From contig BPTK01000004.1 in assembly GCA_023705905.1 (NCBI GenBank), positions 1 to 32,000 on the forward strand: a DNA stretch of 32,000 bases, in the 5' to 3' direction. Shown piece by piece: positions 1 through 10,653 of the stretch. The translations under genes were made by a program, and so were the position numbers. Position 1 is the first letter of the stretch, and the number at the start of each line of letters is the position of its first letter. This DNA comes from Candidatus Heimdallarchaeota archaeon (lineage in GTDB: Archaea; Asgardarchaeota; Heimdallarchaeia; Heimdallarchaeales; Heimdallarchaeaceae). Below the pieces are notes generated by a model. The model did no database searches. It was not told the origin of the DNA and saw only the letters and a list, made by a program, of their open reading frames with translations.

Positions 1-5132
<5,132 letters not shown>

Positions 5133-5501: not shown

Positions 5502-6893
<1,392 letters not shown>

Positions 6894-6950
6894 TTAAAAT
6901 AACAAAAAAATGATTAAATTATCAATAATTGATAATAGAAAGATTTTTGG

Positions 6951-7643
6951 ATGGAACCAAGAAAAGTGAGAAATAGCAATTTTGTTGTGACAAAAATGAG
7001 CAAGTTTGAACAAAAGGCCCCAATACTGCTTTATGCAATCGACATAGTTGATGGACATCTGATTAAAGAGGAAGGAGAATTTGGTCGTTGGGTATTGATA
7101 ACCACTAATAACGAAAAAATCTACAAGATAAGAATCAATGGCACAATAGTAGATAAATATCATAGTGCAAGTGATGGAACCAAAAAAGCATTCACAACAC
7201 TAACTTTAGACGATGGAACAGCTACTGTTAGAATAAAAGCTTGGGAAGAAACTGCAGAGTTCTTGAATGGTTTTATTCCGGGTAATGATGTTGATGTAAC
7301 TGGAAAGCCTAGAACAAGTGAGGACGAAGTATACATTTTACCTGAATCAGTGGTTATAATTGAAGATCTAAATAAGGAGATTTACCTACGGGCTAAAAAA
7401 ATAAAACGTTATTCAAAGAATAATCTAATTATATCCAAGGAAGTACAAGCTATTCCTGAGCACAATCAAGAACAAAAAGAGAAAATATGGGTTCTAATTA
7501 CGGATTCTGAAGAGGGAATAGAGTTGGAAGAAATTATGGAAAAAACCAAGTTGGATAAAGCAACTGTTGAATCGATTATCCATGATTTGCTGAATGATGG
7601 AGATATATATGAACCAAGTGCTCTGAAATTTAAAAAAATCTGA
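6951..7643 (+). CDS. OB-fold nucleic-acid-binding protein with a C-terminal winged-helix-like domain (RPA32/Stn1-like architecture)
   Basis: The central segment YKIRINGTIVDK...FTTLTLDDGTATVRIKAWEE...GNDVDVTGKPR...VYILPESV looks like an OB barrel. The C-terminal IWVLITDSEEGIELEEIMEKTKLDKATVESIIHDLLNDGDIYEP resembles a winged-helix domain. An alternative ATG is at 6996. Confidence 0.5.
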   Translation: MEPRKVRNSNFVVTKMSKFEQKAPILLYAIDIVDGHLIKEEGEFGRWVLITTNNEKIYKIRINGTIVDKYHSASDGTKKAFTTLTLDDGTATVRIKAWEETAEFLNGFIPGNDVDVTGKPRTSEDEVYILPESVVIIEDLNKEIYLRAKKIKRYSKNNLIISKEVQAIPEHNQEQKEKIWVLITDSEEGIELEEIMEKTKLDKATVESIIHDLLNDGDIYEPSALKFKKI

Positions 7644-8134: not shown

Positions 8135-8167
8135 TCATGAAGGAATTTGAAAGGTAAACGTAATAAA

Positions 8168-8348
<181 letters not shown>

Positions 8349-8370
8349 CAAAAGAAAAGAAAATAGATTG

Positions 8371-8378: not shown

Positions 8379-8431
8379 GTTTACTATTGGAGACAAATGA
8401 TTTGACAAATAAAGCAAATTTTGAAAGAAGT

Positions 8432-8457
8432 CGAAATGTTTATGCTGAGATACTCAA
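8432..8457 (+). repeat. Left copy of the bipartite direct repeat, a partial copy of the tRNA-Ser upstream region plus its first 14 nt
   Basis: The sequence is cgaaatgttta immediately followed by tgctgagatactcaa. The same two blocks occur at 10528-10538 and 10570-10584, separated there by 31 nt. Confidence 0.8.
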
Positions 8458-8534
8458 ACGCATGAAATGAAGCTAGTCTACATTAGACACTGCTTGAAGG
8501 GATTACTCCCAAACCCCTCACATGCGTTGAGGGG
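8438..8534 (-). ncRNA. Putative omega-RNA (reRNA)-like scaffold plus guide of the TnpB-like gene
   Basis: On the minus strand: a 7-bp hairpin CCCCUCA-ACGCAUG-UGAGGGG (8534-8514); GGGA-GUAA-UCCC (8510-8499), a GNRA loop; and the tnpB-like stop at 8485-8483. CAUGCGU (8464-8458) is complementary to the first hairpin's loop, making a pseudoknot candidate. It is directly followed by UUGAGUAUCUCAGCA. Confidence 0.4.
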
Positions 8535-10471
8535 GAATTATTATGAATAACTTTTGCTCCTTTCTGAGCTATGTTCTTGGCCGCATTAATATGAGTATTT
8601 ACCCTTTTATTGCATTTTTTACAAGGTGCATAATCATAACTTGTAAACCCTCTATCTAATGTACCACCACATTTATTGTGGAGTCTACTTGTGTTTTGGG
8701 GGTTAACTAATACGAGTCTTACTATCCTAGTGGATAGCATTGATGCTATTAGAACTGCTTTCTTAAAAATCTCCAAATCATCAGGCATATTATAAATCGC
8801 CTTAGCTAAGGCACCTTTTTTTCCTCGGGCACTAATCTGTAAATTTTCAATGCATAAGTATTGGCTTTTGTTCTGAATTATGACTGCCGCCAAGAAATGA
8901 GGTAATTTGTTCTTTATTTCTTTGAGTAATCGAGCTCTTCTTGCATAAACCCGTTTTAATTCTCCTCTAATCTTACAATAACCATATGTATCCTTTTGCT
9001 TTCCTTTTATTGCTAGACTTATGTGCAATGATCTAATTTGGTTTTTAGTTAAAGAATGATACTCCTTTGATAGTTTAATCAAATCACGAGGAATTTTTAC
9101 AGGATAATTGAAGGCAACCATATGCTCGCTGAGTCGATTAATGTCTACTCCCATAATAGTAGAGTTATTCAAAGGAATGTTTCGCATATATTGTACAGTT
9201 AATTTCGTACTAATGAAACATTCAGAGTTTCCTTCTAAAACCACTTTCACATTTGGTTTATTACTTGGAGGAATACCACTTTCAATTTGAAGAACCTTAA
9301 TCTGGGCACCATTTTTCAAGAAATTTCTCACTTTCTTTGGGAAGAGTAGAGATGCTGTAAGTTTTGAACGATTTTTTGAGGGAAAACCCAACTCAAATTC
9401 ACCGTTATTTATAGCTAGATTTGTCATAATCTCTGCATTTCCCGGTCGAGTAATCACATATTTTTTGTTCATCATAAGTTTGATAGGCAATTTACCTCTT
9501 TTTTTCTTAAAGGGCATTGAAATGAATTCTTCAGGATTTGAAGCCTTTAACATTTTAAGTACAGTCGTCCATAAGTGAGGGAAGAGTGCGAAAATAATTA
9601 TCAGTCTTAAAGTTGAAAATAATTTTCTGGATTTATTTCCTAAAACTATTGCTAGCTCAGAGGATAATAACTTGAGGCTTTTCCATCTTGATGTTTGTTG
9701 TGTGTTAATCCAAGAAGTAAGGTATGAAGCTACTAAGCTTTTATTGCTTAATATAAGATGTAATTTTCGTAGAAATGCGTTTTGTTTATCGGTTAGTTTA
9801 GATAGTTTGGTGAACTCATCTAATTTGTTTTCATAAGCGTCACTGATCGCTTGTTCAACTTCATAATGAGTTACTAGTGGAAGGAAACTGTTAAACTTCA
9901 ATTGGTGTTTTCTATAGATATTAGGAGATTTCTTTCTCCAATATGAATCAACTTGTCTACGAGTGCTCGTAAGAAGATTAAGAACCCAAATATACTTGCT
10001 TTTCCATTTGTCGCTAAATTTACTCTCAGTATAAGGAGAACGACCAAAAACAATCCATTCAATCGCTTGTTGAGGATTTTTCATCCAATAGATGAAGAGC
10101 TGATTTATTTTGCTCTCTTGATTTAACCTGTTTTTTAAACTTACAAAGAGCCAATGAAAGGCGCTTTCAGCTATATTTGGGCTCTTTCCTATTGTTTTGC
10201 TTAATTTGCTTCGAGGATATAAATCATGAGGGTTTTCACGACATATGTTTAGTGCAGTTTCAACAGTTCTCTTATCGAGCAATTGTAATTGATCTTCTTC
10301 TAACTCCCTTATTCTTTGATTTATTGCATCACGGTGTTCGGAATTCAAGAATTTCAAAGGCAAAGAATATGTTTTTGAAACTATTGTAGAACTAGATGCA
10401 ATTTGATACAACTTGAAAACCTTCTTCATACATATATCTGACAAATCATATATAAAGTAAGTAAAAATCAT
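8483..10471 (-). CDS. TnpB/Cas12-like RNA-guided nuclease homolog (662 aa) with an enlarged N-terminal/REC-like region and an atypical RuvC-III motif
   Basis: RuvC-I is MGVDINRL (D443, codon 9145-9143). RuvC-II is LCIENLQ (E542, codon 8848-8846). A zinc-ribbon-like HNKCGG...CKKC follows, then NTHINAAKNIA, where TnpB proteins have D-x-NAA-x-NI (H627, codon 8593-8591). The D-E and E-H spacings are about 99 and 85 aa. An alternative ATG is at 10429. Confidence 0.8.
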   Translation of the reverse strand: MIFTYFIYDLSDICMKKVFKLYQIASSSTIVSKTYSLPLKFLNSEHRDAINQRIRELEEDQLQLLDKRTVETALNICRENPHDLYPRSKLSKTIGKSPNIAESAFHWLFVSLKNRLNQESKINQLFIYWMKNPQQAIEWIVFGRSPYTESKFSDKWKSKYIWVLNLLTSTRRQVDSYWRKKSPNIYRKHQLKFNSFLPLVTHYEVEQAISDAYENKLDEFTKLSKLTDKQNAFLRKLHLILSNKSLVASYLTSWINTQQTSRWKSLKLLSSELAIVLGNKSRKLFSTLRLIIIFALFPHLWTTVLKMLKASNPEEFISMPFKKKRGKLPIKLMMNKKYVITRPGNAEIMTNLAINNGEFELGFPSKNRSKLTASLLFPKKVRNFLKNGAQIKVLQIESGIPPSNKPNVKVVLEGNSECFISTKLTVQYMRNIPLNNSTIMGVDINRLSEHMVAFNYPVKIPRDLIKLSKEYHSLTKNQIRSLHISLAIKGKQKDTYGYCKIRGELKRVYARRARLLKEIKNKLPHFLAAVIIQNKSQYLCIENLQISARGKKGALAKAIYNMPDDLEIFKKAVLIASMLSTRIVRLVLVNPQNTSRLHNKCGGTLDRGFTSYDYAPCKKCNKRVNTHINAAKNIAQKGAKVIHNNSPSTHVRGLGVIPSSSV

Positions 10472-10527: not shown

Positions 10528-10584
10528 CGAAATGTTTAAATTTTTACTGTAATCATTGAACAAAGAACGTGCTGAGATACTCAA
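10528..10584 (+). repeat. Right copy of the bipartite direct repeat, overlapping the promoter region and 5' end of tRNA-Ser
   Basis: Block cgaaatgttta is at 10528-10538 and block tgctgagatactcaa is at 10570-10584. The second block comprises the base before the tRNA plus tRNA nucleotides 1-14. Confidence 0.8.
10535..10542 (+). promoter_or_regulatory. TATA-box-like element upstream of tRNA-Ser
   Basis: TTTAAATT lies about 30 nt upstream of the mature tRNA 5' end. Confidence 0.35.
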
Positions 10585-10653
10585 GTGGTATGAGGGTGGA
10601 TTGCTAATCCATTGTCACTAGACTCCCGGGTTCAAATCCCGGTCTCAGCTCCA
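10571..10653 (+). tRNA. tRNA-Ser (anticodon GCU), class II with a long variable arm and genomically encoded CCA
   Basis: Manual fold: acceptor GCTGAGA/TCTCAGC; D-arm CTCA-AGTGGTA-TGAG; anticodon arm GTGGA-TTGCTAA-TCCAT (anticodon GCT); variable arm TGTCACTAGACTC; T-arm CCGGG-TTCAAAT-CCCGG; then T-CCA. Confidence 0.92.

Follow-up and report, generated by a model that had tools for sequence, protein, structure and literature searches.

Genomic Context

The window analyzed in this study is a 32,000-nt stretch of DNA from a Candidatus Heimdallarchaeota archaeon (contig BPTK01000004.1, positions 1 to 32,000), in which a gene for a TnpB/Cas12f-like protein has tRNA-Ser(GCU), together with the promoter of that tRNA gene, on one side and a 5S-like rRNA gene on the other. 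The TnpB-like coding sequence overlaps at its 3′ end with a predicted RNA scaffold, and the scaffold is followed by a short segment antisense to the tRNA-Ser gene. Our leading, though tentative, reading of these parts was a TnpB element that lacks a transposase and has a fixed guide directed at a tRNA gene; such an element may home by cleavage. All features are given in window numbering (Table 1), and the scaffold and the TnpB-like gene were read on the minus strand.

The locus was syntenic with the related locus L080, with which it shared the order HypF-HypE-tRNA-Ser-gene-5S-like-DUF5752-OB-MiaB-like-GyrB. Between the two loci the neighboring proteins were 57–76% identical, and the TnpB-like proteins 56%.

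Table 1. Features of the TnpB-like unit and its surroundings, in order along the window

Feature	Coordinates	Strand	Description
5S-rRNA-like conserved gene	8150-8350	-	halves swapped
Direct repeat, right copy (UAAACAUUUCG + AC)	8430-8442	-	equals the tRNA-Ser promoter core read on the other strand (GTCGAAATGTTTA)
Fixed guide segment (putative), UUGAGUAUCUCAGCA	8443-8457	-	antisense to tRNA-Ser nt 14-1 plus base -1
Scaffold 3′ end	8458-8474	-	conserved AGCUUCAU-UU linker (DNA AGCTTCAT-TT), then pseudoknot 3′ strand CAUGCGU (8464-8458)
Scaffold hairpin 3	8476-8488	-	GUCUA-AUG-UAGAC; holds the TAA stop at 8485-8483
Scaffold hairpin 2	8499-8510	-	GGGA-GUAA-UCCC
Scaffold hairpin 1	8514-8534	-	CCCCUCA (8534-8528), loop ACGCAUG (8527-8521), UGAGGGG (8520-8514)
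TnpB/Cas12f-like open reading frame	8483-10429	-	~648 aa; likely start ATG 10429 (MKKVFKLYQI)
Probable archaeal promoter of the TnpB-like gene (BRE/TATA, TTTTACTTACTTTATATAT)	10448-10468	-	aligns with conserved upstream block
Direct repeat, left copy	10528-10538	-	lies within the functional tRNA-Ser promoter (CGAAATGTTTAAATTTTTAC, plus strand)
Putative target in the tRNA-Ser gene	10570-10589	-	TAM-like ACC (10589-10587), spacer AC (10586-10585), protospacer TTGAGTATCTCAGCA (10584-10570)
tRNA-Ser(GCU) gene	10571-10653	+	ARAGORN; Rfam tRNA 60.2 bits

BRE, B recognition element; TAM, target-adjacent motif.

TnpB-like Protein and Its Family

Cas12f1-like_TNB was the only Pfam domain matched by the open reading frame (ORF), and a profile of the family matched Cas12f and TnpB structures in the PDB over their RuvC-TNB region. 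The AlphaFold 2 (AF2) model, with a mean confidence score (pLDDT) of 82.6, contained a large helical recognition (REC) lobe, and its top Foldseek matches were Cas12f, Cas12 variants, ISDra2 TnpB and Fanzor2. The start at 10429 was chosen by alignment with relatives over an alternative in-frame ATG at 10471, which would yield 662 aa. More than 120 homologues of ~645 aa were found, nearly all in Heimdallarchaeota metagenome-assembled genomes and often several per genome. A metagenome scan for nearer orthologues of the window protein returned none above ~50% identity, and a further protein search gained a single partial locus at a tRNA-Ser gene, L098, which lacked its 3′ end. All relatives carried a conserved block, GATTTT..GAGTTTAAATA / ACCGACTTTATATAT, upstream of the gene, with which the probable promoter of the window copy aligned.

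The original prediction, which was made from the letters of the window alone, took an Asp-to-His change as one sign of possible binding over cleavage. The family sequence 'NTHxNAAxNI' aligned to 'NADxNAAxNI', placing His at the third catalytic position, and RuvC-I D443, RuvC-II E542 and RuvC-III H627 were invariant in 104/104 aligned members, giving the family D-E-H where the usual triad is D-E-D. The ligands of an HxxC...CxxC zinc finger and the NAAxNI motif were invariant as well, and the protein was full length. H627 was also present in multicopy IS607-type copies with a TnpA serine recombinase. Because the change is family-wide, mobile copies included, it was no sign of a dead nuclease, and a local inactivating mutation was ruled out; this part of the original prediction therefore fell away. 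Conserved branches with the same RuvC-III change, some of them restricted to archaea, have been argued to be probably active (PMC10691335).

The family is a Heimdallarchaeota TnpB/Cas12f-like group derived from IS607 transposons. Its main clade was a recent, bushy radiation with several copies per genome, in which the gene had a MerR+Resolvase ORF (IS607-type TnpA) directly upstream or was a deletion derivative retaining the left end. Left-end conservation in this clade began abruptly, as ACYGT-RRACAACTGA, the end itself starting with ACYGTRRACAACTGA, and the guides differed from one another in all cases. The window copy fell among deep, long-branched lineages of the neighbor-joining tree, and the window contained no TnpA match, left-end motif, second copy, CRISPR array or tandem repeats. 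The tRNA-linked lineages were all without TnpA, and each adjoined one tRNA gene: tRNA-Ser(GCU) in the Ser lineage (window, L080-L084, L098), tRNA-Cys(GCA) in the Cys lineage (L047, L050, L052, L053, L060, L063), tRNA-Asn(GUU) in the Asn lineage (L051, L057-L059) and an intron-containing tRNA-Pro(UGG) in the Pro lineage (L056). Cys-type and Asn-type copies coexisted in single genomes such as CSMAG_1090 and CSMAG_2472.

A further transposase-less lineage, X1 (L048, L055), had the conserved guide GCTGTTTAGAGGACC (L048 5963-5980; L055 5912-5929), which recurred with 1-2 mismatches ~175 nt downstream in L048 (~6138) and ~120 nt downstream in L055 (~6030). The recurrence lay in conserved sequence other than a recognizable tRNA, and CTTGCTGTTT also stood immediately upstream of the gene's promoter. 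The search for a TAM common to this group failed.

Scaffold RNA and Guide Boundary

The stretch 8458-8534 was predicted, with high confidence, to be the 3′ part of an omega-RNA-type scaffold with three hairpins, closed by a 6-7-bp pseudoknot. Hairpins 1 and 2 were both contained in the minimum free energy fold. The loop of hairpin 1 forms the 5′ strand of the pseudoknot and was perfectly complementary to CATGCGT (8464-8458). An equivalent of hairpin 2 (e.g., AUGGG..CCCAU), followed by CAAG, was found in all tRNA-linked relatives, and hairpin 3 was kept in position with varying sequence.

The 3′-end alignment took in ~75 related Heimdallarchaeota loci, and covariation was examined in 51 main-clade scaffolds. 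In the latter, the helix between the loop and the 3′ heptamer was 93% paired, compared with merely 23-46% of cells in slid controls, and 4/7 of its pairs showed compensatory double changes (ACGCACG/CGTGCGT, ACACACG/CGTGTGT, ATGCACG/CGTGCAT, ACGCTCG/CGAGCGT). The observed covariation was reached by 0/500 shuffles, and a second 7-bp helix covaried too. All 17 of the 17 tRNA-linked members, window included, retained 6-7 bp of this pairing, in differing sequences (CGCATG/CATGCG, CGCATA/TATGCG, CACATA/TATGTG, CGCACG/CGTGCG). A 7-nt complementarity could arise by chance in one sequence; the comparative data dismissed this origin, and because loop and heptamer covary across related loci the pseudoknot was considered real. 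A pseudoknot directly 5′ of the guide is an arrangement shared with the guide RNAs of TnpB and of TldRs, the TnpB-like nuclease-dead repressors.

The conserved nucleotide block ran from hairpin 1 through '...TTCAT-NN-heptamer' and broke off directly after the heptamer at every locus, beyond which the loci shared nothing. As conservation ended at 8458, the guide was taken to begin at 8457 (boundary 8458|8457), from where the sequence reads, in descending order, TTGAGTATCTCAGCA-T-AAACATTTCG. The original prediction had described hairpins, the loop complementarity and a 15-nt match to the start of tRNA-Ser on the minus strand, and the coordinates of all of these checked. Its proposals of an omega-RNA-type scaffold for the TnpB-like gene, of a pseudoknot immediately 5′ of the guide and of a tRNA-like segment in guide position were likewise borne out by the covariation, the conservation boundary and the TnpB/Cas12f fold, and the homologues kept both the hairpins and the loop pairing.

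Hairpin 1 encodes the conserved C-terminal peptide FPSTHVRG. Among relatives the stop codon fell before, inside or after this hairpin with the nucleotides unchanged, and because the stop shifts while the nucleotides stay, the PSTHVRG tail was ascribed to a constraint on RNA or DNA, not on the protein. The stop was often a TAG inside hairpin 1, where it made a bulge. No RNA family covered the scaffold in an Rfam scan, in which tRNA alone reached gathering score and nothing relevant appeared at E<=1.

The unit thus resembled IS607 TnpB/omega-RNA systems in the TnpB/Cas12f fold with its split RuvC and zinc-finger TNB domain, in the scaffold that overlaps the ORF 3′ end, ends in a pseudoknot and is directly followed by the guide, and, for the main clade of the family, in the MerR-Resolvase TnpA and the variable, flank-derived guides. 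Unlike those systems, the window copy was without TnpA or a recognizable left end, features present in the main clade, and its guide was fixed among orthologues and had a match beyond its own flank, in a neighboring tRNA gene. The family protein also differed in its size (~650 aa), its large helical REC lobe and its RuvC-III His in place of Asp.

Guide Match to the tRNA-Ser Gene

The 15-mer behind the scaffold had exactly two occurrences in the window (8443-8457 and 10570-10584), as the original prediction had claimed in naming the tRNA-Ser 5′ end as its sole in-window match. At a tolerance of up to 2 mismatches, the expected number of matches was 0.08, and 2 matches were seen in 0/100 shuffles. 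The putative target reads ACC-AC-TTGAGTATCTCAGC. The original prediction had also pointed to TACCAC (10590-10585) ahead of the match, and this sequence contains ACC-AC, an instance of a motif, RCY-NN, that recurred in every tRNA-linked relative and also where the left end of the main clade forms its junction.

Guides antisense to the neighboring tRNA were found in four independent lineages, and the parts of the tRNA concerned were nt 1-14 for Ser, nt 7-25 for Cys, the T-arm for Asn and the anticodon arm for Pro. RCY-NN preceded the best placement of the guide on the tRNA gene in all four groups, as ACC-AC in Ser, as ACC-GT, ACC-GC, ACC-GA or ACT-CC in Cys, as GCC-GC or GCC-AC in Asn, and as ACC-TG in Pro, there only with the 22-nt intron removed. 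A TAM would be expected at the left-end junction of the main clade, and the sequence there is ACY-GT. The chance that four independent groups share RCY at a fixed offset was ~1e-5 under uniform base composition. These recurrences suggested that RCY(-NN) is likely the TAM of this family and would, indirectly, be in keeping with putative RNA-guided, TAM-dependent cleavage of double-stranded DNA. That the guide is fixed and directed at the tRNA was considered probable, and gene conversion was an unlikely cause of the guide/tRNA identity, given a tract of 14-15 bp. Simple interruption of a tRNA gene was rejected as a full explanation: the neighboring tRNA genes were complete, the Asn fragment was antisense to a tRNA gene on the same strand, and the Cys similarity stopped at nt 7.

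Conservation of the segment was uneven along its length. The first 14 nt past the scaffold were identical among orthologues at 13/14 positions in the Ser group, 11/14 in Asn, 10/14 in Cys and 14/14 in X1, compared with 47-61% identity over the following 46 nt across groups (54-61% for the window vs. L080/L084). Synonymous sites of the orthologues were saturated, with a proportion of synonymous differences (pS) of 0.65-0.76 overall and 0.73-0.76 for the window vs. L080/L084. Comparison of the window with L080/L084 showed a joint change of guide position 12 (A vs. G) and tRNA nt 3 (U vs. C). Position 11 did not follow, leaving 1 mismatch to the own tRNA-Ser in L080 and L084; this comparison covered three Ser-group loci.

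An old IS607-type insertion in or beside a tRNA gene could have left such a segment as a mere flank, with no present action on the tRNA. The TnpB model itself equates the guide with the right-end flank, the flank beyond 15 nt enters a second portion of tRNA-Ser promoter sequence as would a duplicated target, and the Cys-group guides did not track D-loop changes of their tRNA-Cys. An inert relic was nevertheless judged improbable, as the guide was the best-conserved 3′ segment despite saturated synonymous sites, with lineage-specific indels (1, 4, 13 nt) in the spacer directly behind it. The ORF was intact and under purifying selection within the Ser group (ratio of nonsynonymous to synonymous substitution, dN/dS, of 0.14 for L080 vs. 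L084), the pseudoknot had been maintained by compensatory changes, and both the joint change at guide position 12 and tRNA nt 3 and the recurrence of RCY-NN across four tRNA groups spoke against it.

The guides of all four groups (4/4) were antisense to the tRNA whatever the orientation of the neighbor, even at L080 with its inverted tRNA cassette, and the Pro match was one base longer on the spliced tRNA than on the gene. Both observations would fit a ribonucleoprotein (RNP), or an omega-RNA alone, that pairs not with DNA but with transcripts of the tRNA or pre-tRNA. We gave this explanation very little credence: the RCY-NN motif beside each match points to TAM-dependent recognition of DNA, the same orientation in 4/4 groups would arise by chance with a probability of only 1/8, the targeted stretches lie buried within tRNA helices, and we know of no TnpB that targets RNA.

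Several guides fit foreign or intron-less alleles better than the tRNA gene beside which they reside. The L051 and L057 guides matched the tRNA-Asn allele of L017, an empty site, at 15/18 positions, compared with 11/18 and 13/18 on their own tRNA. The Pro guide matched an intron-less tRNA-Pro at 15/18 with the TAM, and the resident gene at 14/18 without the motif. In L056, the resident tRNA-Pro(UGG) gene (4824-4922, minus strand; guide at 4773-4790) had its 22-nt intron exactly between ACC-TG in exon 2 and the guide-matched sequence in exon 1, and this intron may be a resistance allele. The tRNA-Ser(GCU) gene at the empty site of L103 (5145-5229) had a D-loop longer by 2 nt (ACC-AGGC-TTGAG vs. 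ACC-AC-TTGAG), which would displace the TAM-like motif relative to the protospacer.

Insertion Polymorphism and Flanking Repeats

The tRNA-Ser/5S locus was occupied in the window and in the more distant L080, L084 and L098. It was empty in the closest relatives, namely L099 (HypE 90% identical), L100 (87%), L103 (79%) and a P0130 contig (78%). The empty site has the order tRNA-Ser, ~36-nt leader, promoter block AAACATTTCGAC, CTTCTTT.AAATTTGC and 5S-like gene. Compared with it, the window had an additional 2,085 bp (10527-8443), comprising the promoter, the gene, the scaffold and the 15-nt guide. Because closer relatives carry the locus without it, the 2.1-kb unit was regarded as an insertion/deletion polymorphism. 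A gene beside its putative target, with both occupied and empty alleles, is the configuration by which free-standing homing genes are recognized.

An 11-bp repeat, TAAACATTTCG, flanked the insertion at 8432-8442 and 10528-10538. The right copy continued into the original downstream context, as judged by the empty sites of L099 and L100, and the block of the left copy was also found upstream of tRNA-Ser in L080, L098, L099 and L100. L051 had a like layout, in which the scaffold led into a 16-nt guide and then into 15 bp that repeat the 3′ end of tRNA-Asn. Two origins are possible. A duplication of ~57 bp (tRNA nt 14-1, leader and promoter) may have been followed by shortening of the right copy through lineage-specific deletions, or the unit may carry its own guide of ~16 nt and be flanked by a short repeat. 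The spacers behind the guide measured 1, 4 and 13 nt by lineage, and that of L080 still resembled the leader of the window. Under either origin, recombination between the repeats would restore the empty arrangement.

Direct repeats around the unit (11 bp in the window, 15 bp in L051) would also be expected of integrase attachment sites, for which tRNA genes are classical locations. The distance from protospacer to insertion, 57 nt in the window and 61 nt in L084, recalls RNA-guided transposition by type V-K CRISPR-associated transposons (CASTs), which also home to tRNA genes and, like the unit, pair a TnpB-derived effector (Cas12k) with a short guide matching a tRNA gene beside which they are found. 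Integrase attachment or CAST-like insertion 57-61 bp from the protospacer start was considered a slight prospect at best, since no integrase or Tn7-like genes were present in or beside the unit, whose neighbors encoded VIT1, HypE/F, DUF5752, an OB-fold protein and a MiaB-like protein. Unlike a type V-K CAST, the window unit was a single ORF among housekeeping genes, without TnsB, TnsC, TniQ or a CRISPR array, and the family largely retained its catalytic residues. The distance and orientation between target and insertion were not constant: the Ser and Asn geometries differed, the Asn insertion lying on the TAM side of the target, and CAST-like fixed spacing was thereby ruled out.

The right repeat represented a truncated copy of the tRNA-Ser BRE/TATA pointing into the scaffold, and it was kept in all three Ser-group loci although its TATA part was cut short. 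The tRNA-Ser gene and its promoter were inverted in L080 (4688-4770) and L098 (168-250) relative to the window and L084 (1-46), with the orientation of the TnpB-like gene and guide unchanged. At the empty site of L099, an unrelated 216-aa ORF (6429-7079) stood between tRNA-Ser and VIT1, and precomputed Pfam matches identified, at 1-744 of the same locus, a GyrA with an intein bearing a LAGLIDADG domain.

The 5S-like gene on the far side of the unit had relatives in L080 (6940-7130), L099 (~5950-6130), L100 (~6670-6850) and L103. Positions 36-120 of the Rfam 5S model aligned to 8370-8229 (17.6 bits) and positions 1-52 to 8229-8180 (16.1 bits), and an 11-bp helix, GCCUAGUAAGG/CCUUACUAGGU, closed the 5S-like unit. 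No ordinary 5S at gathering score was found in the window. The arrangement suggests a circularly permuted 5S that may be matured via a circular intermediate; in the literature searched, permuted 5S has been reported for organelles only.

Possible Homing and Its Alternatives

TnpB is a homing nuclease for its own transposon. Under the homing reading, the RNP would recognize tRNA-Ser alleles and probably cut them, and repair from the element-bearing copy would copy the unit into empty alleles. Conserved tRNA and 5S genes would serve as homology arms, for which the genes on either side of the unit, tRNA-Ser with its promoter and the 5S-like gene, would be ideal. The unit would then correspond, with an RNA guide, to a homing-endonuclease gene of the free-standing kind. 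Such genes, an example of which is SegB in a tRNA gene region of phage T4 (PMC13565253), likewise consist of a single nuclease gene beside a conserved RNA-gene target with occupied and empty alleles, and in several cases the resident target differs from the best-recognized sequence. In contrast to them, recognition here would be RNA-guided, not protein-based, cleavage is a putative step, and the resident target of the window is unmutated. Homing was favored because TnpB is a known homing nuclease and the catalytic residues were conserved as in the mobile clade, and because the resident allele was, for several guides, a poorer fit than an empty or intron-less one.

The main competing explanation was an exaptation of the TldR type, in which the RNP would bind the tRNA-Ser 5′ end without cutting and would modulate transcription or protect the locus. 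As in TldRs, a transposase-less TnpB relative with an adjacent pseudoknotted scaffold carries a short, fixed and conserved guide that matches an adjoining gene, comparable to the oppF-type TldRs with their 9-16-nt guides against a neighboring promoter. The window guide was perfect over 15 nt behind a TAM-like motif and covered -1 to +14 of tRNA-Ser, overlapping the transcription start, and the protein was under purifying selection in a syntenic locus. A match of 14-15 nt may permit binding by TnpB or Cas12 without cleavage. TldRs, however, are defined by a decayed RuvC triad and a truncated C-terminus, whereas the window family kept D, E and H, the zinc finger and the C-terminus, and the H was common to mobile IS607 copies. 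TldRs are bacterial or phage-borne and act on promoters of protein-coding genes; the window unit is archaeal, its family targets lie inside tRNA genes, and it is polymorphic as an insertion/deletion. By group, the targets fell at tRNA nt 1-14, 7-25, 24-40 and 53-66, not consistently at a promoter, and those of the sister groups lay deeper than that of the window. The Asn, Pro and L080/L084 guides fit the resident tRNA worse than foreign or intron-less alleles, and the absence of the unit from the closest relatives indicated that it is dispensable. Binding or repression thus remained a minority explanation, with roughly half the weight that we gave to homing.

Three observations that go beyond the original prediction, the absence of the unit in the closest relatives, the 11-bp flanking repeat and the lineages each on a different tRNA gene, tip the balance from a host regulator toward a selfish homing element. 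Overall, the scaffold, the pseudoknot, the guide position and the TAM-like motif of the original prediction stood, and its argument for binding from the His residue did not.

A number of points weigh against homing. The tRNA-Ser gene of the window has a TAM-like motif and a perfect 15-nt match, and the empty alleles match 14 nt. There is no obvious self-immunity in the window, since the resident match equals or exceeds that of the empty alleles. Target differences that would protect the resident allele were present for L051, L057, L056 (the intron) and L080/L084, but not for the window (15/15). Its self-match may be explained either by binding only at 14-15 nt, by self-cutting that is tolerated or repaired, or by a TldR-like role of this particular copy. 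Cleavage by the D-E-H RuvC site is a predicted activity, the Cys-group guides matched the neighboring tRNA-Cys at 12-14/18 positions with mismatches near the TAM-proximal end, and the Ser-group guides numbered three. The patchy presence of the unit could stem from repeated loss through flanking-repeat recombination, not gain, and those repeats may have arisen either by duplication with deletion or with a guide-bearing unit. The 56% identity of the element protein, beside 57-76% for its neighbors, also fits long vertical residence.

Implications for Heimdallarchaeal tRNA Genes

The transposase-less TnpB units may, more speculatively, be a whole family of RNA-guided homing elements spreading through the tRNA genes of Heimdallarchaeia (Ser, Cys, Asn, Pro), with tRNA variants as resistance alleles. 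Proposed alleles of this kind would be the L056 intron, the acceptor-stem changes of L080/L084 and L057, and the longer D-loop of L103. A literature search found no paper on this Heimdallarchaeial family or on tRNA-directed TnpB guides.

The findings in this study add to a previously undescribed Asgard-archaeal TnpB family of large (~650 aa), D-E-H RuvC proteins a covariation-supported scaffold, a guide boundary and a suggested TAM. The boundary and the suggested RCY-NN TAM make the system directly testable in vitro. The tRNA-linked lineages suggest a way in which TnpB may persist after the loss of its transposase, namely as a unit that resides beside a conserved tRNA gene and whose guide has become fixed on that gene. 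If binding is the true function, RNA-guided regulation of the TldR type would reach archaea and tRNA genes. If homing is true, the unit would be an RNA-guided analogue of homing-endonuclease genes, and it would provide a tangible example for the long-standing proposal that introns and variants of tRNAs shield tRNA genes from mobile elements.

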